From a virus (Duplodnaviria > Caudoviricetes): a stretch of 53,001 nucleotides of DNA. Positions 2,390 through 41,264 of this stretch are shown here, in pieces; position 1 is the stretch's first letter, and every line of letters begins with the position of its first letter. The notes beneath the pieces are model-generated. The model worked only from the letters and a program-made list of their open reading frames with translations. It was not told the DNA's origin and did no database searches. The DNA lies in the IMG/VR virus record IMGVR_UViG_3300030102_005935, positions 1 to 53,001 of that record; one strand, 5' to 3'. Made by a program: the position numbers and the translations under genes.

Positions 2390-5300
2390 ATGGCTCGCTT
2401 TGTCCGTATCTTGAAGGCCACGAAAAGGCAAGAAAAAGACGAGCGCAAACGCAAGAGGGACGAGGCAAGAGAGGCACGCAAAGCCAAGAAAAAAGCGCGA
2501 CAGAATAAGAAAAAACAGGTGCGCGTAGTTGATGCTCCGCCACCAAACAAAGAGCCGAAGGAAGCCAAACCGGAACCACCGAAAGAAGAGCCACCAAAAA
2601 ATAAGGAGACTAAGCCACCAACGCGCGAAATTGCTGTCCGAGACAGAAAGAAAGGTAAAACCGAGAAGGCTTTTGAGTCTTTACAGCCTTATATGAACAA
2701 CTTGATGAAGAGGCATGACGCTGGTGAGATTGACATAGTGGACTTATACACTAATATTATCAACGCGAACAACCTTTTGATTGGTCAAGCACTTGGTATG
2801 GACGAAAGTGCGCTGTATGAAGCGCAGGGAGACATACCTGCAATTATGGCGGAACCTTTGATTAACGCTCCTGTAATGATGCACTTACAAAGAATGTCAA
2901 ACAAATACCCGGAACTCAAAGAAGTTCGCGCAGAAGACGAAGAAGACAACGGTAGTTTGGAAGATTTGATGGAGGCGACAAAAGGAATACGCGCTGATAT
3001 TTCATCGTTTATCGCGGACCCAATAAACATGGGAAGACCGCACCAACAAAAAGACATCAATGGTATTTACAAATTGTTGGCTCGCTTTAATCACCCATTG
3101 GCTGTAACGCTTGGTGAAGAAATACCAAAGAGCGACAAGATTGCACCAAACTACAAACCAAGAAGACCTCGCCAAATACGCGTTAGGGGAAAAATGACAG
3201 ACCGCGACTTTGAGGGTGAGATGAACCGTTTAGCGCGTGAACAATCGGAACTGTTGAGTGGGAGAACACCCGCGGGTTCTATGGTTCCCTTTGGAGGACC
3301 GCGAGCGCAAGACAAGAAATTCTATGACGAATTCTTTTCACAGACCGATATTGACCGCGGACCAAAGAAGCAAACTGGTATTGTTGTTAAACGACCAAGC
3401 ACCGCGATGACGAAAAATATTCTTGAAAAAGTCAAACAAATTAGTCGCGAAGAAGCACTTGATGATAAGGACGCGTTCAATAGTTTACAAGATAAATTCA
3501 ACAACTTCATGATTTCATTAACAGGCAATAAGGCGTTCGGAACATCGGGGCGCGCTGGTAAATTTGGTGGTGAAATTGAAACTGGTCGCGCACCAAACGC
3601 ACTTACACCGTCTATGGCAGAAGTTGGTAAGCAACTTGGTATCGGTATGCCAGCACCAAACATACCGGACATGATGCTCAAACCTCATTTAGAAGGTAAA
3701 TCACCTTTCAGTATGGAGTTGCGTGACGCATTGGCTGTTGAGTTAGGCCCTATGGATAAAACAGGTTTCCACCCATCGCTTGTGTCATCAACAGGTGAAG
3801 ACGGGCTACTAAGCAGTTTGCTTGATGATGAAACTAAAGAAACAACTGAGGGTGCTGGTTTTGCTGGAACTAAAGAGGAAATTGAAGAGAAAGCCAGTGA
3901 AGCGCGAAGAGCAAGAATTGGTGGAGTTGCAACTGAATCTTCAATGATGGAACCCGAAGATGAACTTGCGGTTGTTCAAGGTAAAAGGAAGATGTCGCCT
4001 TCTCAAAAGATGGCTGAACTTGAGCGCAGGTTGCAACAAGGTGATATTGACGATTATGAATATGAAATGCAAAGACTCGCGCTTCAAATGAATCAACACA
4101 AGATAGACAGCGATAAAGAATTAGGCGGTCTAAGTGGTGATGATTTTGATGTTAATCACGCATTCTTTGGTTTGAATGAGAATCAAATCATGGAGCGCAG
4201 TCAAATGTTTGTTGACAATCTTATCGGTATGGGTCGTGTTATACGAGAGTTGAGGTATGAAGCACACAGACATAGTGGTGCTGAGACACCCGAACAAAAA
4301 AAGAAAGTTGATAATGAAATAGCCGCTATGGGTTTGGACGCGCAACATCTTATTTCATTTGGTAATATTGACAATGCTCCGCTTAGGGACATATTAAGAT
4401 ACAACAGGCTTGATGATATTATGAACGGTAAACTAAGTCAAGTAATGCCGCGAATAACATCGCAGATGAATAGACAGCACAAAATGATGAAAGATATGGG
4501 CTTGAGCGATGTTGATGTTGTTAATGCGGCTATGAAATACGCTAACGCTGATATGAGTATTAGCGGATACAAAGATGCATTCAAGAGTCTGTTAACACAG
4601 AAGCGCAAAGAGGGTGATTTGAAATCATATCCAATTTATCGTTTGTTGCAATATTTACAGAAAAAGGGACTTCGCGAAGCAATGGACGAGGAACATCATC
4701 AAAAGGTAATGGAGCAGCAGAAAAGGTTTGAGAGAAACCACGCTGCGCGCAAAACAGAAAGAGAGTTAGGTAGTTTCAGTGCTGGTGGGGCTGATTTGAT
4801 GTCGCCGCAACCCGAACACATTTCTCATCTTTTAGAAGACAAAGAAGAATGTCTATCGTGCCACCCGGATAGATTTGGGAACCGAACCGCACAGGAAGCA
4901 AGACTGCATTCACCATTCAAGCGTGAAAGAACACCATTCGCGCATAAATCAATCACTATGCCTCTTTTGACTGATTACAAAGAAGGCAAAGGGCGAGGCG
5001 ACGCGCGTTTGTATGCTATTGCGCCGGAAGGTCAAACTTCCCTTGCTTCTATCGTCAATCATATTTATCCGGGCAAACTTGACATCAAGAAACTATTAGC
5101 AGAAGAAGAAAGAGTCAAAGAAGACCGTCAAAGAAGTGTTGCAAATTGGCGCAAAGATAAAACCAAAAAATACAAACGACTCATCAAAGATGCTGTTCTT
5201 ACAGGTAATCCACGCGCTGCAAACATTTACAAAAAGTTTGGACTTTACAAGACAATTGAGAATGCTATCGCAACAGGACCAGCGGGTATGAGCAACAAAG

Positions 5301-8300
5301 AATTAGTTGCTGCATCGTTCTTCATGAATAACGACGATTCAATTGATAAATTCCAAGAAATGCATCGTAAAAAGACGCTTATGGCTACAAGATTCAACGC
5401 TATTACTGACGCTATTGATTTCATGAAAGAGATAGCCGAAGGTCAATATGGTGGTAAAATCAAACCGGGTGCGTTGAAAAGTGAATCATTAAGACGCGCT
5501 CTTCTTAGTGAATTAGTTGGTGGGCCTATTGATGGTATTCAAAGAGCAGACAAAAGCATACTAAGAGCAAAAAGAAGCCTTGAATCATTAGACCCTATTT
5601 ACCGACAGTATTTAGCAGAACAAAAGGACTATGAGGAAAAATTAGCGCAAACCAAGATGCAGACATACATTGACGAAGATGGTAATGAGCGACAAGAACG
5701 CGGACAATATATGGAGCCATCACAAATCGCAATGATTGAAGAAATCGCTAAAAAGATTGACAAGAAGTATAGCAGTATGTTGTTAGACCGTAAAAACAAA
5801 CTTAGCACTATCAAGCGTAATGAAAACAAAAAGCAAAAACTACAAGATGCAAGCGAAGAATCTTTGTCGCGTGTTAACGAATTCATGCTTGGTGTTTTCA
5901 TCAAGGCCGGTGGTGACATTGCAAAGATTCTCAACAGCAAAAAACCAACAACGAGTATGGTATCCAAACTGTATGAACAGTTGTATGAAGACGATGACTT
6001 TGATTCAATACACCGCGCTGATACAGATGGCAACTTGAGCCGCGACTTTACTCATTCTTTGAGTAATTACAAATTGGGACGAATGGGTGAAATGGCTGGA
6101 ACAGGTATCATGGCTCATAACAACAACAAAGCATTGCCGCGTGTTAACAATATCAACCAACTACTTGCTCATCGTATCGCTATGGGCTTCCCCCTCAAAG
6201 AAGATGACATTGAGCGCGCTAAATCAATGATGTTTGATGCTGAGATGACTGATGCTGTTGATGATGAAGATGATGAAGAGTTTATGCGATTAGCGCGTGA
6301 AATGATGACCGAAGAAGAAATACAGAATCTATCGGAAAAGAAACATCATCATCATGACGACAGTGCTAACGAGTTGGGGTTAATCACAGAAGCAGAAGCA
6401 GCGCGAAGGGAGCAAAATTCACACTTTACAAGAGGTAGTGAAGAAGCCATTGAAAGAGGTGATATTAATGCGCAGTCGTTGATAAGTAATTGGCGACAAC
6501 ATGCACCAACATTATGCGGAACATGTCATGGACATAAGTTCGTTACTAAAGATGAAGCAATCTCATTCTTGCGTCATCGCATACCGGAACTGGAAGGTGT
6601 AGGAAGAGACAGTCCAAGAATGATGAAATACATATCACAAAACTTACGACCGCGAGGCACGCAAGATTTCGCAAGTCATGAAATGGCTGATGAAATGGAA
6701 GACCACGAACACGAACAATTCGCGTGTCCGGCATGTGAACACAGTGCTGATTATGTTCAAGGTGGTAAGTGTAGCAACGGTTTATGCCCCGATTGTTTAG
6801 GTAGTGGTGTCCGCGACCCATTAGATGATGAACACATACATGATGGTTACACAGACGCGGAAGGAAACAAAATAGATGGTAAAAACCATCACTATTCGCA
6901 TAACGGTGCAGTCGGCGCGAAGTTTGACCACCTTAACCAACTGCTATTACAGGGAGCAGAAATGATGCAAAGCGGTAAAATACCCGACTTTCTGCAAGAA
7001 GTCGTTAAACGCGCTTCACCAGTATGGCAGCAGTATGGTGATTATGTAGGGACAGGTAAATACAAAACAATTGAGGATAAAAGAAATGCAGCGCGAAAGA
7101 AAGAATTGGAACCGTTGGAGATTGACCCTAACGCGCCGGAGATACCCGGTCCACCAAGAGAAGAAAACGAAGAAACGGCAGATAACACAGATATGAATAT
7201 TGATTTCGGTCAAGAAAAACCAAAAGATAACACAGATATGAATATTGATTTCGGTCAAGAAAAAGAAGAGCCAAGAATTGACATACCGTTATACGGTGTG
7301 CAAAAGAAGGCTCTTGATTCTCATCACAAGATAATGCTTGAAAACAGAATTAATCAATTAGAAATGATTGGTGTAAAAACACAAGAAAACGCTGGTAATG
7401 CTGACGCAGTAAAGATGATAAAAGATTTAGCGGCAGAAATTAGAGCAGACCCCGCTTTCATCAGCGGTGAAGTTCATGGAAACGATATGCACCCGCTGGT
7501 TGATAAAATACACAAGTTGCAAGAATATGCAGAAGCGGCGTATGTTGCTTCCGAAATGGGCTTTGACGACAGAAGAAAAATACCGTATGATGAAAAAGGC
7601 AACATACTAACAAGCGTCAAGGACATATTTGCTGGTGATTCACCTTTGACATTTGCTGATTATGAACCGTTGACCCCTATGCATGGACACAACTTGACAT
7701 TAAGTGAAATAGCAGAAGGACTGTTTGAAGATGGTGCGACTCATTCACCAAGACCGATTGATGATAAAAGATTAGCAGACTTATTCCGCGGTAACAATAA
7801 AGCGATGGGTGTCATCAATCGTCGCCAGCAATACAACAAACTTGACAAAAATAAACTAAGCAAAATAGCCTCCGCGCTTGATGGAATTGACAAACCAATG
7901 GTTGCTCGTAAAACAACTAATTTGAGAAGCGACTCATTAGATGCTATATTGAAAGAATTTGGCGAAGAAGGTAAAGTCTCCGAGATGGATAAACCGCAGT
8001 TGACTTATAGTGATGAAACAATGAATGCGTTTAAGCAAGCAGGTGCTACAGATGTTAACGCATTAATTACTGCACCAAACGCTAACAAACAAAATCGCGC
8101 AATCAACGAAGGATACAATGTGAACTTGAATAGTTCAATCAAAGAGTTGTGGCAAGAGTATGTTCTAAAGACAGCAATGAGAACATTCATGACGCGCGTT
8201 AACAACCCTCTTGATTTCCCAAAGATACCCGAAAACATCACACCGTCAAACATGAAACAGTTAGTTGGTGAAGATGTTGGGTTGTTCAAATTGTTAAGAG

Positions 8301-9019
8301 ATGAAGCCGCGAAACTATGTGGTTATGAAAATGAAGATGAGTTTAGTAAAAAGGTTGGGTTGACCAGCAAAATAGAGATTACTGACGGTAAAGGAAGAGT
8401 TGCGCGAGAGTTGAACCCAAGAGAATTCAAAGCAGATGTTATGCAGAATGCTAACCATGAAGATAGTGCTAAATTAGATTTAGGTTTTGTCAAATATCAA
8501 AAAGACGATGAAGGTAATCTCATTAGTGCTAAGTTTACACCAACAGATTTGAAAAAGTTGTTTGCTAATTCACAAAAATTAGCATTCTCAGCAGAAGATA
8601 AGGCGATGTATGACGGTATGGTAAAATCCGCTCAATGGCATCACTATCCTAATTGGTATCATAGAGATGTGATGCGCGATGTATTACAAGGTCAAGAAGG
8701 CAAAGAAGATGGGTTTAGTGATTATGATGAGTTGAGTCAAGCATTCCAAAATGGCCTGTTGCCACCGGAGATAGATAAAAGACTCAAAGAATCACTTATT
8801 CTAACAAGAATGTCGCACCCTACATTGAATCATCAAAACTACGGTGATATGTTAGCGTATGACCACGCGAGACAGGAAATGTTGAGAATGCAAAGAATGT
8901 CGCGTATGCAACGATATGGAACTAACCCGTATCTTGGACCTACACCCACGCAACCAACGGAGATGCCCCAGCAACAACAGCAACAGCCCGCAATTGATTT
9001 TGAGGGCGATTCTCAATAA
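2390..9019 (+). CDS. Giant hypothetical protein, 2209 aa; basic N-terminus, helical/coiled-coil regions, Cys-rich Zn-finger-like segment
   Basis: Uninterrupted ORF; CLSCH, CGTCHG, CPACEH, CSNGLCPDCLGSG (DnaJ-like CxxCxGxG); tandem DNTDMNIDFG. Confidence 0.9.
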   Translation: MARFVRILKATKRQEKDERKRKRDEAREARKAKKKARQNKKKQVRVVDAPPPNKEPKEAKPEPPKEEPPKNKETKPPTREIAVRDRKKGKTEKAFESLQPYMNNLMKRHDAGEIDIVDLYTNIINANNLLIGQALGMDESALYEAQGDIPAIMAEPLINAPVMMHLQRMSNKYPELKEVRAEDEEDNGSLEDLMEATKGIRADISSFIADPINMGRPHQQKDINGIYKLLARFNHPLAVTLGEEIPKSDKIAPNYKPRRPRQIRVRGKMTDRDFEGEMNRLAREQSELLSGRTPAGSMVPFGGPRAQDKKFYDEFFSQTDIDRGPKKQTGIVVKRPSTAMTKNILEKVKQISREEALDDKDAFNSLQDKFNNFMISLTGNKAFGTSGRAGKFGGEIETGRAPNALTPSMAEVGKQLGIGMPAPNIPDMMLKPHLEGKSPFSMELRDALAVELGPMDKTGFHPSLVSSTGEDGLLSSLLDDETKETTEGAGFAGTKEEIEEKASEARRARIGGVATESSMMEPEDELAVVQGKRKMSPSQKMAELERRLQQGDIDDYEYEMQRLALQMNQHKIDSDKELGGLSGDDFDVNHAFFGLNENQIMERSQMFVDNLIGMGRVIRELRYEAHRHSGAETPEQKKKVDNEIAAMGLDAQHLISFGNIDNAPLRDILRYNRLDDIMNGKLSQVMPRITSQMNRQHKMMKDMGLSDVDVVNAAMKYANADMSISGYKDAFKSLLTQKRKEGDLKSYPIYRLLQYLQKKGLREAMDEEHHQKVMEQQKRFERNHAARKTERELGSFSAGGADLMSPQPEHISHLLEDKEECLSCHPDRFGNRTAQEARLHSPFKRERTPFAHKSITMPLLTDYKEGKGRGDARLYAIAPEGQTSLASIVNHIYPGKLDIKKLLAEEERVKEDRQRSVANWRKDKTKKYKRLIKDAVLTGNPRAANIYKKFGLYKTIENAIATGPAGMSNKELVAASFFMNNDDSIDKFQEMHRKKTLMATRFNAITDAIDFMKEIAEGQYGGKIKPGALKSESLRRALLSELVGGPIDGIQRADKSILRAKRSLESLDPIYRQYLAEQKDYEEKLAQTKMQTYIDEDGNERQERGQYMEPSQIAMIEEIAKKIDKKYSSMLLDRKNKLSTIKRNENKKQKLQDASEESLSRVNEFMLGVFIKAGGDIAKILNSKKPTTSMVSKLYEQLYEDDDFDSIHRADTDGNLSRDFTHSLSNYKLGRMGEMAGTGIMAHNNNKALPRVNNINQLLAHRIAMGFPLKEDDIERAKSMMFDAEMTDAVDDEDDEEFMRLAREMMTEEEIQNLSEKKHHHHDDSANELGLITEAEAARREQNSHFTRGSEEAIERGDINAQSLISNWRQHAPTLCGTCHGHKFVTKDEAISFLRHRIPELEGVGRDSPRMMKYISQNLRPRGTQDFASHEMADEMEDHEHEQFACPACEHSADYVQGGKCSNGLCPDCLGSGVRDPLDDEHIHDGYTDAEGNKIDGKNHHYSHNGAVGAKFDHLNQLLLQGAEMMQSGKIPDFLQEVVKRASPVWQQYGDYVGTGKYKTIEDKRNAARKKELEPLEIDPNAPEIPGPPREENEETADNTDMNIDFGQEKPKDNTDMNIDFGQEKEEPRIDIPLYGVQKKALDSHHKIMLENRINQLEMIGVKTQENAGNADAVKMIKDLAAEIRADPAFISGEVHGNDMHPLVDKIHKLQEYAEAAYVASEMGFDDRRKIPYDEKGNILTSVKDIFAGDSPLTFADYEPLTPMHGHNLTLSEIAEGLFEDGATHSPRPIDDKRLADLFRGNNKAMGVINRRQQYNKLDKNKLSKIASALDGIDKPMVARKTTNLRSDSLDAILKEFGEEGKVSEMDKPQLTYSDETMNAFKQAGATDVNALITAPNANKQNRAINEGYNVNLNSSIKELWQEYVLKTAMRTFMTRVNNPLDFPKIPENITPSNMKQLVGEDVGLFKLLRDEAAKLCGYENEDEFSKKVGLTSKIEITDGKGRVARELNPREFKADVMQNANHEDSAKLDLGFVKYQKDDEGNLISAKFTPTDLKKLFANSQKLAFSAEDKAMYDGMVKSAQWHHYPNWYHRDVMRDVLQGQEGKEDGFSDYDELSQAFQNGLLPPEIDKRLKESLILTRMSHPTLNHQNYGDMLAYDHARQEMLRMQRMSRMQRYGTNPYLGPTPTQPTEMPQQQQQQPAIDFEGDSQ
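7180..7264 (+). repeat. Tandem duplication, 40 bp identical, period 45 bp, encoding DNTDMNIDFGQEK twice
   Basis: AGATAACACAGATATGAATATTGATTTCGGTCAAGAAAAA at 7180-7219 and 7225-7264. Confidence 0.95.
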
Positions 9020-9148
9020 TATCGTTTTTTTCTCATAATCATAATTTACTATATTATTCTGATAATAATACGATAATAGCGATAAAAGGGTGAATCAACA
9101 TGCTTATGTATCGTTCGCGACACGCACTACGCATGGAGGTCTGTTGAT

Positions 9149-9670
9149 ATGCAAGAGCGAACACCACAGAATAAAGATGAATTAAGGGTTTTAGGATTGA
9201 TTTCCTTCGTTAGTATATTGGTCGGTTGTTGCATCGCGGTTTTTGATGCAGGTTTGTGGTTGAGAGATGATTCAACATATACAAACGCGATAACATACAC
9301 TATGGGAGCATTCACCTTACAAGGAATGGCCTATTTCATTTACAAAATGTTAGCGCAAGATGGTATGGACCAGCGCGCTGTTATTTCAAACATGCAACGA
9401 AGCATGACACGACAGATGCAAAACCAACAAATGCGGTTTGCTAAAGCGCAAATGGACATGGAAATCAAAAAACAAGAGGTTGCATTCGCAAAACAACTTG
9501 AAGAATTAGAAAAAGACCCCGAAGTTCAACAATATCTTGGGTTGATGAGCGGTGAAATTGAGCCGGAAACGCCAGCACACAAAGCAAACACCAAAAAATC
9601 ACTTAATTTAGGTAGTAGTGGTCGCAAACGCAACGCTGATGGAACATACGCGAAGAATAAAAAGGAGTGA
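9149..9670 (+). CDS. Membrane protein with 2 predicted TM helices and a C-terminal coiled coil
   Basis: Hydrophobic VLGLISFVSILVGCCIAVF and ITYTMGAFTLQGMAYFIY; Q/M/E/K-rich helix; GGAGGT SD. Confidence 0.85.
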   Translation: MQERTPQNKDELRVLGLISFVSILVGCCIAVFDAGLWLRDDSTYTNAITYTMGAFTLQGMAYFIYKMLAQDGMDQRAVISNMQRSMTRQMQNQQMRFAKAQMDMEIKKQEVAFAKQLEELEKDPEVQQYLGLMSGEIEPETPAHKANTKKSLNLGSSGRKRNADGTYAKNKKE

Positions 9671-9912
9671 AAACTATGGGTTGGTTGTTCAAAACACCCA
9701 GCGATGATGCAACAGAAGCCACGCTACGCGCTTTACACACACAAAATACTCTTGATACTTACTATGAACGCGGTAAAGCGTTGATTTTGTGTATAATTGT
9801 TGGAATCACTACCGCGCTTGGTGTTTCTTGGTTTGAACAATCAAGTGATATTAGTATTTGGGACAACACAGTTGAATGGTTTGTCAACAAAGTCCGCGGT
9901 TGGGTGGGGTGA
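9667..9912 (+). CDS. Small single-TM membrane protein (likely start ATG 9676)
   Basis: ALILCIIVGITTALGVSWF hydrophobic stretch and amphipathic Trp-rich C-terminus; coupled to neighbours. Confidence 0.8.
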   Translation: MKTMGWLFKTPSDDATEATLRALHTQNTLDTYYERGKALILCIIVGITTALGVSWFEQSSDISIWDNTVEWFVNKVRGWVG

Positions 9913-10635
9913 TTGGTTGCAACATTCGCTGGTAGCGCACTTATGGGTGCTGTTGTGTATGGCCGCGAATTGTATAATTTTCTTAAACCGCGCAGAATTG
10001 GCGTTTACGGTCCGACGCAAGTTGGAAAAACCACACTTGACCAATTTATGCGCACACCGGGAGAAATGGACGATATAGAGGAAAGGACGATGCACGCGAA
10101 ACGGTTATTTGGCGGAGGATATGTTCTTCCTAAAGCAACAAGGAAGCGTTTGCGCTGGAAAGGTGAAAAAAGAGTCGTGCATTCGGCTGATATTGGCGGT
10201 CAACAGCGTTTTTGGAATCTATGGATTGATGATATGGTTGATAGACAAGTGGAAATTGCTATTTTTATGACTGACACGCGTGTTTTGAAAGGTAATGGTG
10301 CGCAAATTATTGACGCAGTAGGTGGATTTGAGTATCTTGTTGACTCATTGATAGAAAAAAGATGGAAATATCGCTCTTTAAAATCAAGATTGAAAGGAAA
10401 ACGCTACGCTCCAAAGCAAATATGGCTTGTAGCGAACAAAGCCGATGAATGGTGGGACGAAAACGCTAACATTTTGTGGCAATCTAACCGATTGCGAGAA
10501 CATAAAGTGTTTGATGCACACCGTCCAGCCATGCGAAGACTACAAAAAGCAGGTATTCCGTGTCGTGTTAGCATGATGGCAACCAAAATCGGCTGGAATG
10601 TGGAAAAAACAATGATAGAAATGTTAAGTTGGTGA
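9913..10635 (+). CDS. Ras-superfamily (Arf/Sar-like) small GTPase with hydrophobic N-terminal helix
   Basis: G1 GPTQVGKTT, candidate G2 Thr (EERT), G3 DIGGQQRFWNLW, G4 VANKAD, G5-like MAT. Confidence 0.88.
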   Translation: MVATFAGSALMGAVVYGRELYNFLKPRRIGVYGPTQVGKTTLDQFMRTPGEMDDIEERTMHAKRLFGGGYVLPKATRKRLRWKGEKRVVHSADIGGQQRFWNLWIDDMVDRQVEIAIFMTDTRVLKGNGAQIIDAVGGFEYLVDSLIEKRWKYRSLKSRLKGKRYAPKQIWLVANKADEWWDENANILWQSNRLREHKVFDAHRPAMRRLQKAGIPCRVSMMATKIGWNVEKTMIEMLSW

Positions 10636-10639
10636 TAAA

Positions 10640-11524
10640 ATGCTTGGAAATACACCCCAAAATGACCTATTACGCCTTGCCGCGCAAACACAGATGAGTC
10701 TTGCGCAGATGCAACAGCAAGCGACTGCACAAGCCGCGATGAATAACGCAAGTGAGCATATAGAAGTGCCACAAGTCAATTTTTACCCTTCACAACACCC
10801 AAACCCCAAAAAAGCGCGTAAAAAAGACATAAAACAGGCATATAAACTGCTAAAACCGACAAAAAGAAGCATTTTTTCACCGCGAAGATGGTTATTTGGA
10901 GGAAAATACCGATATAACACCAACACAATGCGTTGTGTTATTGATGGGGCCGATATTGAACACCTTTTACGGCATGCTGGGAACATATATGAGCAAGTAA
11001 TTGACGAAGAAACTGGCAAATCATTGTGGGAATTATACTTCAAAAACCCCGTTACAGGCGAAGTTGAAGCCTTTGTAGCACGCGAAAATGTCACAAGTGG
11101 GCGTAAAATGCGCGGAACTTACTGCCCGGAACACTTACATTTGTATCATTTACTATGTAAATGGGAGAAAGAAGAAGAAAAAGAGCAAGAAGCGGAAACA
11201 GGAACGCTAAAAGCCAAGTTGAAAAAGGGTGTTTCAACCGTTGCTGTGCCATTAAGTAGTATCAAAAAGAAAGATAACACCCCTCCTATACTCGCAAAAT
11301 ACGAACCTTTCTTCCAAATGCTCAAACAAGACAACATTCCTATTACACATCTAACCAATACTGCTACCGGAGTCAACGATTTGGTAATGATTGTGTTTGA
11401 TATGCGACAATTCCAAGCAGGGAATAACGCAAGATTGCTTTTTGACGCTCTCGCGATGCATCAAATCCAACAGCAATCCGCGCCTTTACCTTTACCGACA
11501 GAATCAAATGATGGGAGCGCGTGA
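10640..11524 (+). CDS. Hypothetical protein, 294 aa, Q-rich N-terminus, possible split Zn site (CVID...YCPEH)
   Basis: ORF with GGTGA SD, in operon with the GTPase. Confidence 0.8.
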   Translation: MLGNTPQNDLLRLAAQTQMSLAQMQQQATAQAAMNNASEHIEVPQVNFYPSQHPNPKKARKKDIKQAYKLLKPTKRSIFSPRRWLFGGKYRYNTNTMRCVIDGADIEHLLRHAGNIYEQVIDEETGKSLWELYFKNPVTGEVEAFVARENVTSGRKMRGTYCPEHLHLYHLLCKWEKEEEKEQEAETGTLKAKLKKGVSTVAVPLSSIKKKDNTPPILAKYEPFFQMLKQDNIPITHLTNTATGVNDLVMIVFDMRQFQAGNNARLLFDALAMHQIQQQSAPLPLPTESNDGSA

Positions 11525-11533
11525 GGTGGTATC

Positions 11534-12115
11534 ATGGTATGGCCGTTTAATAGTAATAATCAGCAAAACCAACAACCAAATGGTGCTTTGAATCTCGGTT
11601 TAGCGGGTGGACAACAGCAAGTTCCGGTGCAGGGACAGCAACAACAGTGGGGACAACAGCAATATGGTTTCCAATATCAAGCACCTCCGAGTGAAATGGA
11701 GATATTATCCGCGATGATAACTACAAATCCAATGATAGACAAGTGGTTATCGGACAACAACGGTGATAATATGAATATGCTTGTGTCGCTTTTAAGTAGT
11801 TTAGTTGCGGTTTCAATCAATACTCTTCTTGCGAATGCGCGTTTAGTTGAAGATGGAGATGGATATAAGTTTGATTTTAGCGGCGTTCAAGGTATGCCAA
11901 CGGCTGATAGCGTCATGATGAGTCAAACACAAATACTCAACAAGGCATCTAACAATGTTCAACAAAAATCTATGGAATTTCAACAAATGGTTAACCTTGC
12001 GAACCAAAGCGTGATGCAAGGTATGTTGAATGATGCTATGGCTGACCCCGGATTGATGCAAAATGTTGGTGGCGGTATTGGCTCATTCCTTCGCGGTGTT
12101 ACAACAGGACGGTGA
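11534..12115 (+). CDS. Hypothetical Q/N/M-rich protein, 193 aa
   Basis: GAGGTGG SD; low-complexity N-terminus, central hydrophobic helix, amphipathic C-terminus. Confidence 0.8.
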   Translation: MVWPFNSNNQQNQQPNGALNLGLAGGQQQVPVQGQQQQWGQQQYGFQYQAPPSEMEILSAMITTNPMIDKWLSDNNGDNMNMLVSLLSSLVAVSINTLLANARLVEDGDGYKFDFSGVQGMPTADSVMMSQTQILNKASNNVQQKSMEFQQMVNLANQSVMQGMLNDAMADPGLMQNVGGGIGSFLRGVTTGR

Positions 12116-12354
12116 TGATTATGGATATGACATCTTTTTTTACAACAGTTAGTGATATGACTAATTTGCGCAAATCTGTCGTAGTTGACATGATTATGGT
12201 TCAACTTATCTCTTTGACACTCGGTTGTTTCATGCTTTTAGTGTTTTCCGGCCCCGATATGACATCAAAAGACCTAAGTTGGGTCATAGGTGCATTATTC
12301 ATCTGTTTCAGTGCTACTGGTATCGTTTATCGTCGCCTCGGACAACAAGGTTGA
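12112..12354 (+). CDS. Small 2-TM membrane protein (holin-like topology)
   Basis: Two hydrophobic segments and basic C-terminus YRRLG; GGTGA SD before ATG 12121. Confidence 0.78.
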   Translation: MMIMDMTSFFTTVSDMTNLRKSVVVDMIMVQLISLTLGCFMLLVFSGPDMTSKDLSWVIGALFICFSATGIVYRRLGQQG

Positions 12355-12603
12355 CCATTTACCAACTGGACATTCACTATTTTTCAAAATAGTTTTTGTT
12401 TTGATAAAACAACCACATAGACTACATCTATCGTGATTTCTTTCGGGGCATTTCAAACAAATGTTGTAACGACGCTCTCTTTCTGTTAAGTCTGCGCGTT
12501 GGTTAGTGATTAAATCAGCCGCGGCTCGCGAAAGACTCTTCGCTGTGCCTAATGAGATTGGAATTCCCGCTACTTTTGGGGCGCGACCTAACCTTTTTCT
12601 CAT
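12295..12603 (-). CDS. Small Cys-rich protein (DUF6171-like)
   Basis: RYNICLKCP...RCSLCGCF..KT.L....CPVGKW pattern common in viral Zn-binding proteins. Confidence 0.75.
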   Translation of the reverse strand: MRKRLGRAPKVAGIPISLGTAKSLSRAAADLITNQRADLTERERRYNICLKCPERNHDRCSLCGCFIKTKTILKNSECPVGKWSTLLSEATINDTSSTETDE

Positions 12604-12640
12604 GGAAACCCTCTTTTGCTACAACTACTTGGTCTTTACT

Positions 12641-13309
12641 ATGGCGGAGCGTATATCAAGAGCATCTTGTAAGTTCTGTCAAGACCCCGACCGCGATGGT
12701 ATTGAGGAAATGATGAAGGCTGGATTGATTACTGCGAAGCAGTTAGATAAAGACAAAGGCTGGCGAGAAGGAACCGCTGACAGACATTTTCGCAACCACG
12801 CGGGGGAATATCACATGGGGAGTAACAGCGAATGTCCTCTTTGCACATCTCCCCAACGAGAAAATCTTGAAATGGCTTATTTTAATGCCAGTATGACTGT
12901 TGAAGAAATCGCACAAGAATTACAAATGCCCGAATCAAGCGTGTATCACCATCTCAAGCATCATCTTAAGCCAATAGTGCAAAAAGGCGCGGCGGATATT
13001 ATCATAATTGAAGCAGGTAAAGAAATGGACAGTCTAAGAACAAACTTGGCGCGAATCAATGGTGAGTTAGGTCATTTCCTTGACGATGCAGACCGCAATG
13101 ACCCGCAATATGTTCGCAACATAGTATCTTTGCACAAAGAAGTTCGCGAAACAGTCAAAGACATCATGAGAGTGCAAGAGCGCGCGGCTGGAACTACTAA
13201 CGAAAACATGACTGCACAAACCATAAACATACTCAAAGTTGAATTAGCGAAAGAGTCCCCCGAAGTGTGGGCGCGACTACGCGGCAAGTTGATGGGAGGT
13301 GATGAATGA
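12641..13309 (+). CDS. Putative terminase small subunit / HTH DNA-binding protein (start revised to ATG 12641)
   Basis: Two repeats of CxxC-helix-HTH-HxxxH (CKFCQ..HFRNH; CPLCT..HLKHH) followed by a coiled coil; lies upstream of TerL. Confidence 0.6.
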   Translation: MAERISRASCKFCQDPDRDGIEEMMKAGLITAKQLDKDKGWREGTADRHFRNHAGEYHMGSNSECPLCTSPQRENLEMAYFNASMTVEEIAQELQMPESSVYHHLKHHLKPIVQKGAADIIIIEAGKEMDSLRTNLARINGELGHFLDDADRNDPQYVRNIVSLHKEVRETVKDIMRVQERAAGTTNENMTAQTINILKVELAKESPEVWARLRGKLMGGDE

Positions 13310-19853: not shown

Positions 19854-20014
19854 AACTCAAAAAAGACAAATGCTGTTGTGGCGGAACGAAAGATACACCA
19901 TGTGTTTGTATGATTGAAGGTAATCAATGCTCCGCTAAAAAACCTAAATGTCCTTGTTATAGATTAATGGATAAACAAAAAACTGCTTTGAAAAAGATGG
20001 TGCGAATAGTATGA
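19850..20014 (+). CDS. Small Cys-rich protein, 54 aa (not in the ORF track)
   Basis: MKLKKDKCCCGGTKDTPCVCMIEGNQCSAKKPKCPCYRLMDKQKTALKKMVRIV; GGAGG SD; ATGA overlaps at both ends. Confidence 0.75.
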   Translation: MKLKKDKCCCGGTKDTPCVCMIEGNQCSAKKPKCPCYRLMDKQKTALKKMVRIV

Positions 20015-20316
20015 CAGTTGAAAAGAATTTGAATCGTTGGTTCAAGGAGAAATGGGTTGATGTTTCTCGTAAAAAGAAAGACGGTTCACACCCTCCATGT
20101 GGGCGAAGTAAAGCCAAGACTTCTTCAAAGGGTTATCCAAAATGTCGTCCTTCTGTTAAGGTATCAAGTAAAACTCCAAAGACTTCCGGCTCTATGTCCG
20201 AGGGTCAAAAACGCGCGGCAACAAAACGCAAACGCAGTAAAAAACAAGGTGTGGGTGGTAAGCCGACCATCGTTAAGGCAATGGACGATGCTTGGTTGAT
20301 GCTCAAAGGTAGGTGA
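20011..20316 (+). CDS. Small basic protein, 101 aa
   Basis: LNRWFKEKWVD..PCGRS...YPKCRP motif, which I recall from marine phage proteins; ends AMDDAWLMLKGR. Confidence 0.8.
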   Translation: MTVEKNLNRWFKEKWVDVSRKKKDGSHPPCGRSKAKTSSKGYPKCRPSVKVSSKTPKTSGSMSEGQKRAATKRKRSKKQGVGGKPTIVKAMDDAWLMLKGR

Positions 20317-20320
20317 AAAA

Positions 20321-20734
20321 ATGACAGAATATGAATACATTATGCACGAACCAATAACAGCCGAAGAATTAGCAATGATGAACGATGAAGATATATCAAA
20401 AGAAGTATCTTTTTGTTCGTGCTGTTCACCGTTTGATATAGCAAGTTCTGTGTTGAAAGCGAAGAAAAAAAGCAAACCGTTTCACGGTTATAACCCAAAC
20501 AAGCACAGTCGTAAAGGTGGATTGAACGCTAAAGGTCGCGCTGCCGCCAAGCGTAAAAGCGGTGCTAATCTCAAACCTCCTGTAACTACCAAACCAAGTA
20601 AGTTGAAACCGGGTGGTAAGAAAGCCAAGAGGCGTAAATCATTCTGTGCAAGAATGGGAGGCGTGAAAGGACCAACCAGTAAAGGCGGTAAATTGACACC
20701 GAAAGGTGCAGCATTGAAAAGGTGGAACTGTTGA
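20321..20734 (+). CDS. Small basic protein (DUF6321-like)
   Basis: GGLNAKGR..NLKPPV..RRKSFCARM..ALKRWNC; acidic N-terminal leader. Confidence 0.8.
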   Translation: MTEYEYIMHEPITAEELAMMNDEDISKEVSFCSCCSPFDIASSVLKAKKKSKPFHGYNPNKHSRKGGLNAKGRAAAKRKSGANLKPPVTTKPSKLKPGGKKAKRRKSFCARMGGVKGPTSKGGKLTPKGAALKRWNC

Positions 20735-20877
20735 TGGATTGTTTCAAAGGCTGTTGTTATACAACCAATGATGGCTACCCGTTTGGGTATTGCCGAAAAT
20801 GTTGGTTGGCTAACGGCAGTCCTCAACCGGTCGGTGGAGGTTTTATTGACCCAATAGGTGGTGAAGATGAAAATTGA
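20734..20877 (+). CDS. Small Cys-rich protein, 47 aa (not in the ORF track)
   Basis: MDCFKGCCYTTNDGYPFGYCRKCWLANGSPQPVGGGFIDPIGGEDEN; TGATG coupling; fills the gap exactly. Confidence 0.6.
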   Translation: MDCFKGCCYTTNDGYPFGYCRKCWLANGSPQPVGGGFIDPIGGEDEN

Positions 20878-22258
20878 TTTAGCCGATGAAACGGCTTTTA
20901 TTGATATGATTTTGAAAAACACCATTCGTGGTGCTTCAATAGGCGATGGTCCACAACCAATTAATCAAGGACAAGGTGAAGTGAATGCAAATCCTGTGCC
21001 ACCTCCACCGAATGAAGTTGAAGAAGAAGAAGAGAAGAAAGAAATGGCTAAAGAAGTCGCGCAACAACTTAAGCGTTCATTACCCGACGGTGGTTGGTTT
21101 CAATCAATGTTCGGTCGCGGTGCTGGTGATTTAGTCAAAGATTTGAGAATGGCTCGTCGTGAACATAAGGATATGCGCGACGCTATTGATTACGCTATTG
21201 ATGCTATCCGTATTGCAAAAAAGCAAGAGGTTGAGGCTACCCTTCAATCAATTGAATGGATTGGCAAACATGAACAAACAGTTCGTAATCTCGGTATTAG
21301 TGAGCGCGATTTACAAGCATTGCGTAAGCATGGACACACACGCGAATATGCACTTCGTCGTGCTTGTGCGCAATGGGAGAAAGCCAACGACACTATCAGT
21401 AAATTATTGCTACTTGAAGGAGATTTCAATGATGAGCAAAGACAAATGTGGGTTGATGCTCAACAACTAAAGAAGAACTCAAAGAAAGAATGGCGTAACA
21501 CTTTACATTCAATTGATAACATCAAAAAAACAGATGCTATATTTTTAACAAAGGCCGCAAGAATACTTGAAGAGCGCGGTCCTTTACCCGCTAATGAAAT
21601 ATTTGCCAGTATGGAAAAAACAAAATCTTTGTCAACAAATCAATTAAGCGCGCTATTCAAAATGTATGGTGTTGATTACGATATTGAGAAGGTTGGTGCT
21701 GGTTGGGGTATAGTCCGCGATGAATCGGTAATTTTCAAAGATGTATGGGCTTACGCTGCTGGATTCCTTGATGCTGATGGATATATCACAATCACAAAGC
21801 GTCTTGAACCGAGGGCTGGTTTTATCGCTACCGGTGAAAGAGGTAAAATGCATTGCGAGCAATTACACAAGGCTCTTGGTTGCGGCGTTCTTCAAACAGA
21901 TTTGAAGATACATAAAAATAGCAGACGCACACAGCACAGACTTCAATTTTACAGTGAAGATGATTTGCGTAAATTGATGAAAGGGTTGCGACCACATCTC
22001 CGCATGAAGAAAGGTCAAGCGGGTGCTGTTCTTGAGTTGCTTGATTTGCGCGGTCGTAAAACAGACATAATCAAATCACGCCGCGATGAGTTGTATCGTA
22101 TAGTGAAATGGTTGAATTGGAAAGATGTTCCCGACAAGCGTGAAGAATTGCTTAAAGAGTGGAACATTGATGAAGCCGGACTTCATGCCATGTTTAATCG
22201 GGACGGCGAAACCCTCCGTCTTCTTGACGACGCTAACCGACTTGTGGAGATGATATGA
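20858..22258 (+). CDS. Protein with C-terminal LAGLIDADG endonuclease-like domain (likely start at the MKID ATG a few codons in)
   Basis: YAAGFLDADGYI motif followed by typical beta strands and LRPHLRMKKGQA; long helical N-terminal region. Confidence 0.85.
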   Translation: MVKMKIDLADETAFIDMILKNTIRGASIGDGPQPINQGQGEVNANPVPPPPNEVEEEEEKKEMAKEVAQQLKRSLPDGGWFQSMFGRGAGDLVKDLRMARREHKDMRDAIDYAIDAIRIAKKQEVEATLQSIEWIGKHEQTVRNLGISERDLQALRKHGHTREYALRRACAQWEKANDTISKLLLLEGDFNDEQRQMWVDAQQLKKNSKKEWRNTLHSIDNIKKTDAIFLTKAARILEERGPLPANEIFASMEKTKSLSTNQLSALFKMYGVDYDIEKVGAGWGIVRDESVIFKDVWAYAAGFLDADGYITITKRLEPRAGFIATGERGKMHCEQLHKALGCGVLQTDLKIHKNSRRTQHRLQFYSEDDLRKLMKGLRPHLRMKKGQAGAVLELLDLRGRKTDIIKSRRDELYRIVKWLNWKDVPDKREELLKEWNIDEAGLHAMFNRDGETLRLLDDANRLVEMI

Positions 22259-25203: not shown

Positions 25204-28200
25204 GTGCGCGAAGATGCTTTACAATACCATCAGCGCATGGTGAATCAGTTTGCACAAGCAATCATCAACAAACAAGATGCTCGCGATGAAGCGGTCAATC
25301 TTCTGTTAAGTGCAAACAACTTAGAGAACAATGGATACGCGTATCCTATATTCAAGGAGCAAGCAGAAGACTTCCTCAAACCTTTGTTGGAAATCAAAAA
25401 CCCCTCCGATAAAGGTATGGAGAGGATATTTTCATCAAAGACTACGCGACATGAACCCACACCTACTCGTCATCACAAAGCGAGAGGGTTGTTTCATAGC
25501 GACGATTGGGTTAAAGCAATGATGGAAGGCAACGAAAATGCAATTGATATGATGGTTAGGTTGTTTGCTGGTAGGAGATTCAAAGACACTATACCCGACA
25601 TCGCTGGTCGTGGAGTTGACGGTGTTGTTGGTAAACATTCTAAACTTAAAGCACTCAACCTTCACCCGCCGCGTAAAGGTGAAGTTGCTTTTGGTGAAAA
25701 ATCATTATGGCAACACTTGAGTAAATTCTTGTATGGTAATGGTGGTGCAAACGCTGAACGGTTAAACGATGCGATGGTTAAGGTCGCTAACAATATGAAT
25801 CCGATTCTCAAACAACCTCATTTATTTAGCAATTGGAGAGGCAACAACGCTACCATAATGAAAATGTATCAGCGCGGAAAAGATGATTTTATCAAAGCCT
25901 TCGGAGAAAGGTTCGGTAAAAATCACCCCTTGTTGTCTTCTAAAATGCTTGATGAATATTATCTAAGACAAAAAAATTGGGAGAACGAAGGCATACCACG
26001 CGAAGAAATTTTTGATGTTCTCTATGAAGAAAATGGAAACCCTGCAAGTAAAAGCAAGAAAAGTGATAAATCCCCTGTTGACCTTTTACGCGAATTAGCA
26101 GACACATACAATGACACAAGGAGAAGACCAAAAGAAGGAGAGGCTAACTTTGGTCGCGTTGGTGATGACGCGTATCGTCTTGGTATAGCGATGTTGCCTT
26201 ATGATGACATTTATCGTATCAAACGATGGATGTTAGAAACCAGCGGTGGTATGAAAGATGACGGCACAGTTGGTAATGATAAGGTCATCAACGAGATACT
26301 TGGACCCGACGCGAGAGGATATATGGCTCATCATGCTTTTATGATTGACAACATGCTTCACACCTTACATGCTGGTGGTGCAGAAAGAAACGGAATGAGT
26401 CATGTATTGCCTAACAGATTCTTGAACAAAACCAAAGAAGAAGTGATGCGTGATATAGATGCGCGACATGAAGAAATTAGAAGGAGATTAAAAGAAGGGC
26501 GATGGGGAACTCTCGGTGATGACGCTTTACAAGATGCATTACAAGGTGTTGATTTCAGCCCAAAGGTGGCAGAATTTGTAAAGAATAGAGATGATGTTAT
26601 AGTGGTTGATGATGATGATAACCCAATATACCCGCATATTGACCACAGTGACTATGGAACATTTGTGTATATGAATTCGGACTTACCCGACATTAGGAAG
26701 TTAAGTGCTTTTGGTTTTTTCAACCAAGAAGAGTTAGATGATTTAATTGAGCGCAGCGTTGTTTCTTACGGGTCAAAAGAATATACTGATTTACTTCGTC
26801 AATCAATCGCTGATTATACTCACACCCATAATATTGAAGATGAATTTGATATGTTGGAAGAGCCGACTATATATCAATCACCGCTTGGTATTTTGATGGA
26901 AGGTGTTGGTAGTAGGAGAGGTAATGCTAACGGCGAATGGGGTGATTTGGGTAATTCTTATGACGAATCAATGCCTAATATGATTCGCGTTAATTTACCA
27001 ACAATAGCGTTTATGATGCCGTCAAGAGGCGAAAGAAGCGGTAGCGGTAGTCAAAAAACTGTTGAACAACAAGACGAGTTTGACCCAAAGAAAGAAACTG
27101 ATGGTCAACTAAGACGAGACTTAGAAGAGGCTTTGCAAAGATACGGTGTTGAAGATGAAGAGAAATACTTGGATATGTTTGACAACGGTAAAGTGGTAAG
27201 TCTTGATGTTCCGCGCAAAGAGATGACTACTCAAGATGTAGCGGAGGGTATAATCAATCCTTATACAGCGGAGAATTACCCCGACTCGCTACCATCTCCG
27301 CTTGGTCAAATAGAACAATATGTGGAGGGTATGCCAACACCTATGTCAATTGCAACTAAAGGGTTGCATTCGTTTTACATGGCTCACAGCAACAACTTCG
27401 GTTTGGGTATGGCGGACTTTAATGGTTTTTTCAGTCTTGACGGTAAGCCCCTAAGAAGCACAGAAACAGCATTGAAAACACCAATGTATTCAACGCGCAA
27501 AGAGCGAGTCAACTCTCAATCAAAAGGTGGAAGAAGTTTATTTGATAGACATCAAATGTCCGGCGACCGTAAAGGTAGCGAAGCGCGACAACTTGGTATA
27601 ACAAAGAATAACCATTCTAATGAGGACAAATTGCTGATAGACGCGTTTTTACTTGGTATGCATCATCCTCTCCATCAACACGATGATGATTCATTTGAGT
27701 TATTCAACGCGCTAATGAACGCGAAAGAAGGAGAAAGAATGGACATTATCAAAAAGAACACACACAAAGACATTATAGGTAGCGGTGGCAGAACTGGTCA
27801 AGATATGTTGAGAGAGTTATTACAAGATGTCACCGAACCATCTCATCATGCAATTTACCACAAAGAAGACTATGATGACCACATGGTTAAGTTGATGAAT
27901 TTCAACGAGCCATACGAATTACCGGAAGCACAAATTAAGGGTATTAAATCGCGCGGAAGACTAATTCAATCAATCAAAGAACTTGACCAACAATATCGTC
28001 GCGCTTTTGAAGAAGGTGATGAAGAAAAGAAGAATGAGTTGCATAAACAGATTGAAACGATGCTGAATGATAAAGACAACATAGTAGGTTATCGTGAACA
28101 TGAAGATGGATTATCCGCGCTTGTCGTCGGTCCAACCCCTTCTTATCTTGCTTCTCAACATTATGCTATGCTTGAGAGCGCGCTACAAAAAGCGCGCAAT

Positions 28201-40671: not shown

Positions 40672-40815
40672 ATGAACAATGTATTTAGAGAAAGTTGGGG
40701 AACGCTGTTGAAAGAAAGTATGTGCAAGGGTGATGATTGTAAAGGTTGTCGTGGTTGTAAGACCTGTCCTAAATGCAAACCGGAAGGCTCAACTTGCGAA
40801 AAGAGAGGGTGTTGA
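40672..40815 (+). CDS. Small Cys-rich protein, 47 aa (not in the ORF track)
   Basis: GAGGTGA SD; MNNVFRESWGTLLKESMCKGDDCKGCRGCKTCPKCKPEGSTCEKRGC. Confidence 0.72.
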   Translation: MNNVFRESWGTLLKESMCKGDDCKGCRGCKTCPKCKPEGSTCEKRGC

Positions 40816-40817
40816 AA

Positions 40818-41264
40818 ATGAAGCGCGATATGCACATTGGAGGCAATAGACCACTTTACATTCGCGCTGTTGAAAAAGATACTTTTGTTGTTGAAGAAGT
40901 TGAAGAAGTATTCAACCCCGAAGCCGCAAAAACTGACGGCAATCCATTCCCCGAAGAACTGCAAGAAGAAGCAGTTGAAGAAACGACCCCGCTTGAAGAA
41001 GAGGGTCCTACTGATTACGAGTCCATGACTGTTGAAGAACTAAAAGCACTTTTACGAGCGCGCGGTCTTCCAGTCACAGGCACAAAGGCGGAACTCATTA
41101 CCCGCCTTACCGAAGCCGATACCCCCTCCGAACAAGAGGCTGTTGAAGCGGAGGCTGTCGTTCCCTCCGAACAAGAGGCCGCGACCAGTAGTGAGGGAGT
41201 AAGTGATAACAATGCCGAAGATAGCGGACCCGATGAGCCTCTTGGTGAACAGCCAAGCGGTTGA
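40818..41264 (+). CDS. Acidic protein with SAP DNA-binding domain (start revised to ATG 40818)
   Basis: DYESMTVEELKALLRARGLPVTGTKAELITRL is a canonical SAP motif. Confidence 0.85.
   Translation: MKRDMHIGGNRPLYIRAVEKDTFVVEEVEEVFNPEAAKTDGNPFPEELQEEAVEETTPLEEEGPTDYESMTVEELKALLRARGLPVTGTKAELITRLTEADTPSEQEAVEAEAVVPSEQEAATSSEGVSDNNAEDSGPDEPLGEQPSG

Follow-up and report, generated by a model that had tools for sequence, protein, structure and literature searches.

Among the closest known counterparts of the system reported here are small GTPases and the proteins that accompany them. SR-beta, the beta subunit of the signal-recognition-particle receptor, is an Arf-related GTPase whose anchor is a hydrophobic helix at the N-terminus. 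For Arf itself, a preprint on the Asgard ArfR proteins gives an amphipathic N-terminal helix as the defining feature. In Haloferax volcanii, the Arf-like GTPase ArvA is described as driving vesicle formation together with ArvB and with ArvC, a zinc-ribbon protein proposed to be a GTPase-activating protein (GAP) (PMC10927574). According to a 2024 review, archaeal tailed viruses lyse their hosts through a mechanism that is uncharacterised, and the main players in their egress are completely so. Here we describe a cassette of six genes, g1 to g6, at positions 9149-12354 of the virus record IMGVR_UViG_3300030102_005935, among them a divergent Arf-like small GTPase encoded by g3. We analysed positions 1-53,001 of this record, about half a genome, and refer to the whole stretch as the window. 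The cassette is a concrete, testable candidate for filling the egress gap of the archaeal tailed viruses.

The GTPase encoded by g3

The g3 gene (9913-10635, + strand) encodes 240 residues from a TTG start and carries the motifs of a small GTPase: GPTQVGKT (G1) at residues 33-40, DIGGQ (G3) at 93-97, NKAD (G4) at 175-178, and a G5-like MATK at 222-225, a segment that in distant members of the family reads SA[RK]xGxxVE. The candidate switch-I threonine is Thr59, within a conserved Arg-Thr-x-His. We counted conservation in 131 full-length family members; a second alignment comprised 27 sequences. In the P-loop GxxxxGKT, G33 was present in 129 of the 131 members and G38, K39 and T40 in 129-130. 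Thr59 and D93 were each kept in 127, G96 in 128, N175 and K176 in 130, and D178 in 129. The G1, G3 and G4 motifs, which the first-pass annotation of this DNA had described as intact in g3, are thus near-invariant across the family as well. At position 97, that of the catalytic glutamine, g3 has Q; of the 131 members, 57 have Q there, 54 have E, 11 have D and 4 have H. Judged from these residues, nucleotide binding is probably a conserved property of the family and intrinsic hydrolysis probably is not.

Searches with the single g3 sequence gave nothing significant in NCBIfam (small_GTP, E 0.13), in the PDB by phmmer (best E 0.34), in PHROGs, or among 50,697 phage records searched by tblastn. 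The protein was resolved only by its family profile and its fold. Run against the PDB, the 27-sequence profile matched chain 8oun_A at E 8.8e-8, deposited as 'GTP-binding protein' and bearing a code that is named in the ArfR preprint; Arl8A/B (6e-5 to 1e-4), GerdArfR1 (2e-4) and Rab33B (3e-4) came next. RecA matches in the same list were dismissed as P-loop repeats. Weak Pfam matches among the 27 members were to Arf in 11 of them (best E 0.0048), to Roc in 7, to MMR_HSR1 in 7 and to SRPRB in 2 (best E 0.089).

The AlphaFold2 model of g3, built on the alignment, reached a predicted local distance difference test score (pLDDT) of 90.9 and a predicted template-modelling score (pTM) of 0.86. Foldseek returned at least 500 PDB matches at E ≤ 0.001, with all of the matches listed being small GTPases and a probability of 1.00 for Rab, Ras and Arf structures. 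The VIA-align ranking, which re-orders Foldseek's own candidates, gave all of ranks 1-11 to Arf, Arl and ArfR structures (Z 18.2-16.1). Arl8b came first, with Z 18.2 and a root-mean-square deviation (rmsd) of 2.4 Å over 162 residues; Arf6 scored 17.8, Arf1 17.4, and HodArfR1 and GerdArfR1 16.9, with Arl1 and Arl3 within 17.8-16.9. The first structure from outside the Arf family was RagA-like (15.8), followed by Rab5 (15.6, rmsd 3.3 Å) and SR-beta (15.2; 5ck3_D). In the nearest non-viral Atlas clusters, Arf is annotated on 17-67% of the members. From profile and predicted fold we conclude that g3 belongs to a small-GTPase family that is new and deeply divergent, its closest known kin being proteins of the Arf family. 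We do not file it as a member of the Arf family, because the curated Arf model is not passed. The Arf-like identity proposed at the outset consequently stands as a statement about nearest neighbours in structure and profile, but not as a family assignment by Pfam.

The model also contains an N-terminal helix, residues 3-24, ahead of the G domain. Residues 2-17 are uncharged, hydrophobic and rich in Gly, Ala, Ser, Val and Met (mean hydrophobicity H 0.63, hydrophobic moment muH 0.14), and residues 12-25 are amphipathic (muH 0.47). An N-terminal membrane-binding helix had been expected here; a helix is indeed predicted, but its first ~16 residues are uncharged and hydrophobic and not classically amphipathic, so that it looks nearer to a short anchor of the SR-beta kind than to the classical amphipathic helix of Arf. 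One Atlas record starts the GTPase at residue 11, and a conserved GSAL motif upstream of that residue supports the long form.

As far as sampled, the family is confined to viral contigs. It numbers 391 proteins at E ≤ 0.001 in a collection clustered at 90%, and 153 confirmed stretches with the GTPase were found in IMG/VR. A full phmmer (HMMER) pass over 1.84 billion representatives yielded 72 clusters, 11 of them at E ≤ 1e-30, and these apparently all belong to the GTPase's own family, fragments included. No fused or longer forms were found among 491 candidates, which is weak evidence that none exist. A search of 185,579 species genomes gave one match, 55% identical, at L082:1205-1909 on an 8.7-kb contig of a metagenome-assembled genome labelled Maricaulis; this is most simply a mis-binned viral contig and therefore carries no host information. 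Fold matches to g3 in the BFVD, all 50 of those listed, came from giant viruses of eukaryotes, in agreement with the earlier remark that small GTPases are rare in tailed viruses.

Conservation of the cassette and its other proteins

The cassette consists of six abutting open reading frames (ORFs) on the + strand, with exactly the boundaries first assigned to them. The junctions between successive ORFs measure -4, 0, +4, +9 and -4 nucleotides (nt), and Shine-Dalgarno-like GGAGGT or GGTGA motifs lie 5' of the ORFs. The ratio of nonsynonymous to synonymous substitution rates (dN/dS), computed against the related loci L001 and L004, for which dS was unsaturated, was 0.03-0.10 for g1, 0.14-0.16 for g2, 0.025-0.029 for g3, 0.04-0.06 for g4, 0.08-0.09 for g5 and 0.08-0.09 for g6. 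All six ORFs are thus under purifying selection and are therefore real genes, the GTPase being the most constrained of them. The description of this region as six tightly coupled genes holds in coordinates and in co-orientation.

Synteny in relatives had been named beforehand as one of the checks that could refute the idea of a functional unit, and the order is kept. Group 1 comprises 80 IMG/VR loci with a GTPase identity of 56-98%. Gene order was retained in 80/80 of these loci, and tblastn of each gene detected g1 in 77, g2 in 79, g5 in 76, and g3, g4 and g6 in all 80. The misses of g1 and g2 come from loci cut at that end, and one of the four loci in which g5 was missed, L069, has an ORF of fitting size that aligns with g5. 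At L066:6721-7774, about 1 kb with three small ORFs is inserted between the GTPase and the otherwise adjacent g4.

Two divergent groups share the arrangement. In group 2, with 140 confirmed IMG/VR stretches, the GTPase is 33% identical to g3, and all 17 loci examined have, in order, an ORF of 135-165 residues, a hydrophobic ORF of 73-77 residues, the GTPase, an ORF of 224-240 residues and another of 228-240 residues. The ORF downstream of the GTPase aligned with g4 (hhalign probability 92.7, E 4.4e-7) through a common RGTYC..H motif, and its successor aligned with g5 (84.9, E 6.4e-6). These profile alignments confirmed that g4 and g5 are homologous to their group-2 counterparts. The upstream membrane ORFs correspond to g1 and g2 in position and architecture only; in L090 the first of them has two hydrophobic segments. 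Group 3, with a GTPase ~42% identical, has four loci, of which two were examined; both showed the cassette in the same order: g1, an ORF of 72-79 residues, the GTPase, g4 and a g5-like ORF. Here hidden Markov model searches matched g1 (E 4e-18 and 2e-15) and g4 (E 2e-31 and 3e-47).

From the order shared by the three groups, the conserved core comprises five genes of the g1-g5 type. Inside the structural region this core changes place as one block. Its site in the window is upstream of a helix-turn-helix (HTH) gene and the terminase, and in group 2 it follows the capsid gene, a 111-residue gene, a SAP-domain gene and a 99-residue gene; in both it is on the strand of the structural genes. No small ORF comparable to g6 was found after the g5-like gene in the group-2 loci examined, and g6, which is present throughout the window's own group, is accessory, outside the core common to the divergent groups.

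Three of the proteins are predicted membrane proteins, and their topology is largely as first described. The product of g1 (9149-9670, + strand, 173 residues) has a strong hydrophobic segment at ~10-39; the second of the two segments ascribed to it, at ~48-68, is hydrophobic by eye but below the threshold of the hydropathy scan. In an alignment of 12 sequences the remainder is a long, charged helical region rich in Q, M, E and K, with a basic C-terminal tail. The g2 product (9667-9912, + strand, 81 residues) is a single-pass protein as proposed, with one hydrophobic segment at 35-58; its N-terminus carries a conserved FKTPxDD...TL..H motif, and its C-terminus is rich in Trp. Two passes likewise hold for g6 (12112-12354, + strand, 80 residues), whose hydrophobic segments at 21-50 and 54-76 are accompanied by a conserved KSVxVDMxMVQ motif and a short basic C-terminus.

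The two proteins encoded between the GTPase and g6 had both been called Q-rich, a label that fits g5 (14% Q) but not g4, a conserved Cys/His-motif protein with 7% Q, mostly N-terminal, and an otherwise conserved, globular-looking sequence. The g4 gene (10640-11524, + strand, 294 residues) belongs to a family of 657 proteins, none of them named. Its alignment of 17 sequences has 75 invariant columns, including C99, C162, H165, H167 and H170 in RGTYCPEHLHLYH. This Cys/His set suggests a metal site, and we regard g4 as putatively zinc-binding. A g4 profile gave 0 matches at E ≤ 1 in the PDB; Atlas matches to unnamed fungal clusters (score 0.90) were dismissed as lying within the range of noise. 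When the GTPase, with GTP and Mg, was paired with residues 40-262 of g4 in a complex prediction, both runs scored 0.00, a result that weighs neither way.

The g5 product (11534-12115, + strand, 193 residues) has a low-complexity N-terminus rich in Q, N and G, a PPSE motif, a helical middle with a hydrophobic segment at 80-102, and a Q-rich C-terminal part with a conserved final Arg. Most group-1 homologues and those of groups 2 and 3, among them L090:7410-8123 and L166:6534-7274, begin with MGLFG(N/T)(N/S); the window's g5 starts MVWPF. We take the MGLFG motif to resemble the permissive eukaryotic N-myristoylation pattern, a likeness that is probably irrelevant in an archaeal host.

The virus, its host and a possible role in egress

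The window encodes a large terminase, a portal, a prohead protease, a major capsid protein of the SU10 type and a tail tube protein. The capsid protein matched 11 of the 50,697 phage records, exclusively archaeal viruses: HVTV-1, HCTV-1, HCTV-5 and related haloarchaeal viruses, at 34-35% identity, as well as viruses that infect methanogens. The marine viral contigs that carry relatives of the GTPase reach about 100-118 kb, and marine DNA runs of several studies contain the stretch or close relatives of it. Magroviruses are described as tailed viruses of ~100 kb that infect Marine Group II archaea and are related to the Druskaviridae, and a LamG-like protein (6 kb) is reported for those of group A. 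The window has such a giant protein: an ORF at 44723-52999 (+ strand, >2759 residues) whose sole Pfam domain is an N-terminal Laminin_G_3 of the laminin-G/concanavalin-like kind. This protein, the archaeal capsid and the size of the relatives fit the published picture, and the window comes from an archaeal tailed virus, probably a magrovirus, with a host that is probably one of the Poseidoniales. A host without peptidoglycan had been surmised from the letters; on the capsid matches and the literature it is very probably an archaeon that lacks peptidoglycan. The accompanying observation that no endolysin is visible also held, as Pfam scans of 34 window ORFs (the six of the cassette and 28 others) found no muralytic domain.

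Our preferred reading, which we hold tentatively and at somewhat less than an even chance, is that the cassette serves marine archaeal tailed viruses as a module for membrane remodelling or egress that is switched by the GTPase. The hydrophobic helix at its N-terminus would hold the GTPase at the cytoplasmic membrane or let it cycle there. When loaded with GTP, it would work with the upstream membrane proteins g1 and g2 and the downstream soluble proteins g4 and g5, and jointly these proteins might deform or breach the host membrane late in infection, releasing virions where no peptidoglycan barrier stands in the way. By analogy with zinc-finger ArfGAPs and ArvC, g4 would be the candidate regulator, GAP-like in kind; g6 may be a lineage-specific accessory membrane protein. 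We infer late expression, membrane binding, contacts among the products and the role in egress from several features. A GTP switch with a membrane helix is flanked by small membrane proteins with charged tails, and a putative zinc-binding and a low-complexity protein are always encoded directly after the switch. The cassette also has a late structural-strand site, in a window where no muralytic enzyme is seen and for a host expected to lack peptidoglycan. Its positions, adjoining the terminase or between head and tail genes, are those at which the lysis cassettes of lambda-like and P2-like phages commonly lie.

Several observations weigh against this reading. None of the six proteins matches a lysis family (holin, spanin, PVAP or other) in PHROGs, Pfam, NCBIfam or PADLOC. 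The single g3 sequence hits 0 Pfam families at E ≤ 1, and the Pfam Arf model PF00025 finds no match at that threshold either in g3 or in the six-frame translation of the window. The AlphaFold2 model of g4 is of low confidence (mean pLDDT 58), so that zinc binding and a GAP-like role are a matter of the sequence motif. Comparison of g1 and g2 with the upstream membrane ORFs of group 2 detected no homology (hhalign probabilities 0.7 and 1.1), and the host is itself an inference. Evidence of expression comes from a single metatranscriptomic contig of 245 nt (12049-12293, one mismatch) that spans the g5-g6 junction. The RNA run, X20, covers just these positions of a 4-kb stretch (3/30 bins), the uncovered parts being uninformative, and the contig is a mere hint that may reflect DNA carry-over. 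Finally, the variable residue at the glutamine position means that a hydrolysis-timed 'clock' is not obviously conserved. The original proposal of a GTPase-timed machine for lysis, exit or assembly is partly supported: the Arf-like fold, the synteny and the host type bear out its premises, the role itself is hypothetical, and the catalytic glutamine varies across the family.

This variability might better suit a slow switch or scaffold than a timer, as would be expected if the cassette were a membrane-tethered organiser of assembly or packaging, one that nucleates the assembly of procapsids or portals, or else a virus factory, at a cytoplasmic membrane that stays unbroken. A parallel would be the membrane-assisted head initiation of some large phages. 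In all cases the cassette is embedded among structural and packaging genes and shares their strand, after the capsid gene in group 2 and before the HTH gene and terminase in the window, and a part as scaffold or condensate former could fall to g5, which is rich in Q and N, and to the low-complexity ends of g4. We nevertheless think this unlikely: none of the proteins resembles a known scaffold, chaperone or portal-associated protein in Pfam or PHROGs, and the haloarchaeal viruses with a 35%-identical capsid lack a GTPase homologue in the phage collection, so that the module is not a general requirement of this capsid lineage. The same structural location is compatible with the cassette encoding virion-internal or ejection proteins, which would be packaged, accompany the DNA on delivery and form or regulate an envelope channel at entry; small membrane-active and low-complexity proteins are typical of podovirus ejection proteins. 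We give this idea little credence, since a nucleotide switch with a conserved NKxD and P-loop has no obvious use in a capsid, PHROGs offers no likeness to known internal or ejection proteins, and the cassette takes a different place among the head and tail genes from one group to another.

A non-lytic manipulation of host membranes or vesicles, by mimicking or overriding vesiculation of the ArvA type, could lead instead to shedding of receptors or of decoy vesicles, to superinfection exclusion or to remodelling of the envelope during infection. It draws on the analogy between the GTPase followed by a Zn-motif protein and the ArvA and ArvC of Haloferax, which control how many extracellular vesicles are put out, and an N-terminal membrane helix with small membrane proteins would fit. 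Yet PF09846 (OapB/ArvB) and PF09845 (OapC/ArvC) are unmatched in the six-frame window at E ≤ 1, the 72 phmmer matches among 1.84 billion representatives did not reach a family as large as ArvA, and the position in the structural region would suggest a late rather than an early function; we consider this quite unlikely. The remaining alternative is that g3 is a pseudo-GTPase or nucleotide-binding scaffold that does not switch, its Arf likeness being that of the general Ras-like fold. The single sequence fits no curated GTPase family, the Z-score gap to Rab and Rag is only ~2.5 units, and more than half of the members have Glu, Asp or His instead of the catalytic glutamine. However, Sar1 (His) and Rap (Thr) are functional without this glutamine, and the near-invariant P-loop, switch-I threonine (127/131), DxxG and NKxD, together with the lowest dN/dS of the cassette (~0.03), point to selection for nucleotide binding, which makes this alternative improbable in our view. 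Matches to defence or scaffold families were likewise absent for the six proteins in PHROGs, Pfam, NCBIfam and PADLOC, and PADLOC gave 0 matches for the six proteins and a neighbouring reverse ORF.

Returning to the egress module, a more ambitious version would see in the cassette the first egress machine of archaeal tailed viruses, in which a membrane-anchored Arf-like GTPase with adaptors, a zinc regulator and a Q/N-rich effector triggers membrane rupture or scission in a host that has no cell wall. We regard this version as rather doubtful. If true, GTPase-driven membrane remodelling of the Arf type, with dedicated partners, would not be limited to Asgard archaea and eukaryotes but would exist in viruses that infect archaea of Euryarchaeota grade, and the viral lineage would bear on the origin and spread of Arf-like switches and their regulators.

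Around the cassette, g1 is preceded by an AT-rich spacer of ~130 nt (9020..9148, + strand), with GGAGGT before the ATG; it follows a 2209-residue ORF and is, by its sequence, a candidate promoter of the cassette. A sigma-70 promoter and terminator scan was set aside as inapplicable to an archaeal virus. That 2209-residue giant ORF (2390-9019, + strand) and another of 1984 residues (25204-31158, + strand) have no Pfam match. Downstream, a Cys-rich reverse ORF (12295-12603, - strand, 102 residues; DUF6171, E 2.1e-7, above the cut-off) converges on g6, their 3' ends overlapping by 60 nt, and diverges across ~37 nt from the HTH gene. The latter (12506-13309, + strand) encodes an ArsR/sigma-70-region-4-like HTH, lies four genes upstream of the large terminase and more likely starts at an ATG at 12641 (MAERISR...) than at the listed GTG, which overlaps the reverse ORF; its product could be a regulator or a small terminase subunit. 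Both the reverse ORF and the HTH gene are present in 80/80 group-1 loci. Proteins with a SAP domain occur in the structural region of both virus groups, at 40773-41264 of the window (+ strand, E 1e-16) and, in group 2, at L090:4487-4981, two genes upstream of the cassette (E 4.4e-10). Between terminase and portal lie small ORFs at 20011-20316 (DUF5872, E 4e-11) and 20321-20734 (DUF6321, E 8.4e-15), both on the + strand. The ORF at 20858-22258 (+ strand) matched no Pfam family at E ≤ 0.01.

Comparison with known systems

We found no published description of the GTPase or of the cassette. The word 'GTPase' is absent from the main text of PMC5434244, PMC10160649, PMC11706807, PMC8651126 and PMC10768690, although supplementary tables may list such a gene. 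A few homologues carry the automatic JGI name 'GTPase SAR1 family protein', and 'Ras family domain-containing protein' is among the automatic names of Atlas clusters; databases therefore already show that a GTPase-like gene exists. What is new is a divergent Arf-like family with constant partners, the fact that it is conserved in three groups of viruses, and its connection with the question of egress. A large viral family thereby joins the short list of Arf-like GTPases from the prokaryote world, Asgard ArfR and ArvA. Public metagenomes hold at least 391 sequences of the GTPase and at least 657 of the g4 partner, and the co-evolving partners could reveal primitive GAP-like, effector-like or guanine-nucleotide-exchange-factor-like proteins. 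Even if the role should lie in assembly or host manipulation, a membrane-linked GTP switch would be unusual as a conserved component of tailed viruses.

Arf and Arl proteins, especially Arl8, and the Asgard ArfR proteins are the best structural (Z 16.9-18.2, rmsd 2.3-2.7 Å over ~160 residues) and profile matches to g3; the structures compared were 8jc5, 2a5f chain A (ARF6), 1zd9, 8ouk, 8oum and 8oun. The predicted N-terminal helix before the G domain is a further likeness, and the switch-II region of g3 has DIGGQ with a Trp seven residues later, which we take to be an Arf-type signature. Unlike the Arf family, g3 is a gene of a tailed virus, is only ~16-20% identical, has a variable glutamine position across its family, longer insertions (~55 residues between G1 and G3) and extra helices after G4, and opens its helix with 16 uncharged hydrophobic residues. 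SR-beta resembles g3 in its structure match and in the weak SRPRB matches within the family, but it ranks well below Arf and Arl, and the cassette, in its viral context, has no SR-alpha-like partner.

In the ArvA-ArvB-ArvC system (OapA/B/C) of H. volcanii and other Euryarchaeota, as in the cassette, one operon encodes a small GTPase whose N-terminus forms a membrane helix, a zinc-binding protein (putatively so for g4) and a further partner; the Arv system controls membrane deformation, the likeness being drawn from the description of ArvA and not from its sequence (PMC10927574). The viral cassette, by contrast, adds two to three integral membrane proteins and a Q/N-rich protein. Because PF09846 and PF09845 are unmatched in the window, the likeness is one of analogy, not membership. 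Holin-type lysis cassettes compare with the locus in a different way: like g1, g2 and g6, their proteins are small, with one or two membrane segments and charged C-termini, and they too form a compact, movable block in the late region. The viral cassette differs from them in having no match to an endolysin, spanin or holin family in Pfam or PHROGs, and to our knowledge lysis cassettes contain no GTPase. The Rab, Ras and Ran proteins of giant viruses (Nucleocytoviricota) are, like g3, virus-encoded small GTPases. Those proteins, however, are recent captures from eukaryotic hosts and belong to clear families, whereas the g3 family is a deep, unnamed branch in archaeal viruses with conserved partners of its own.

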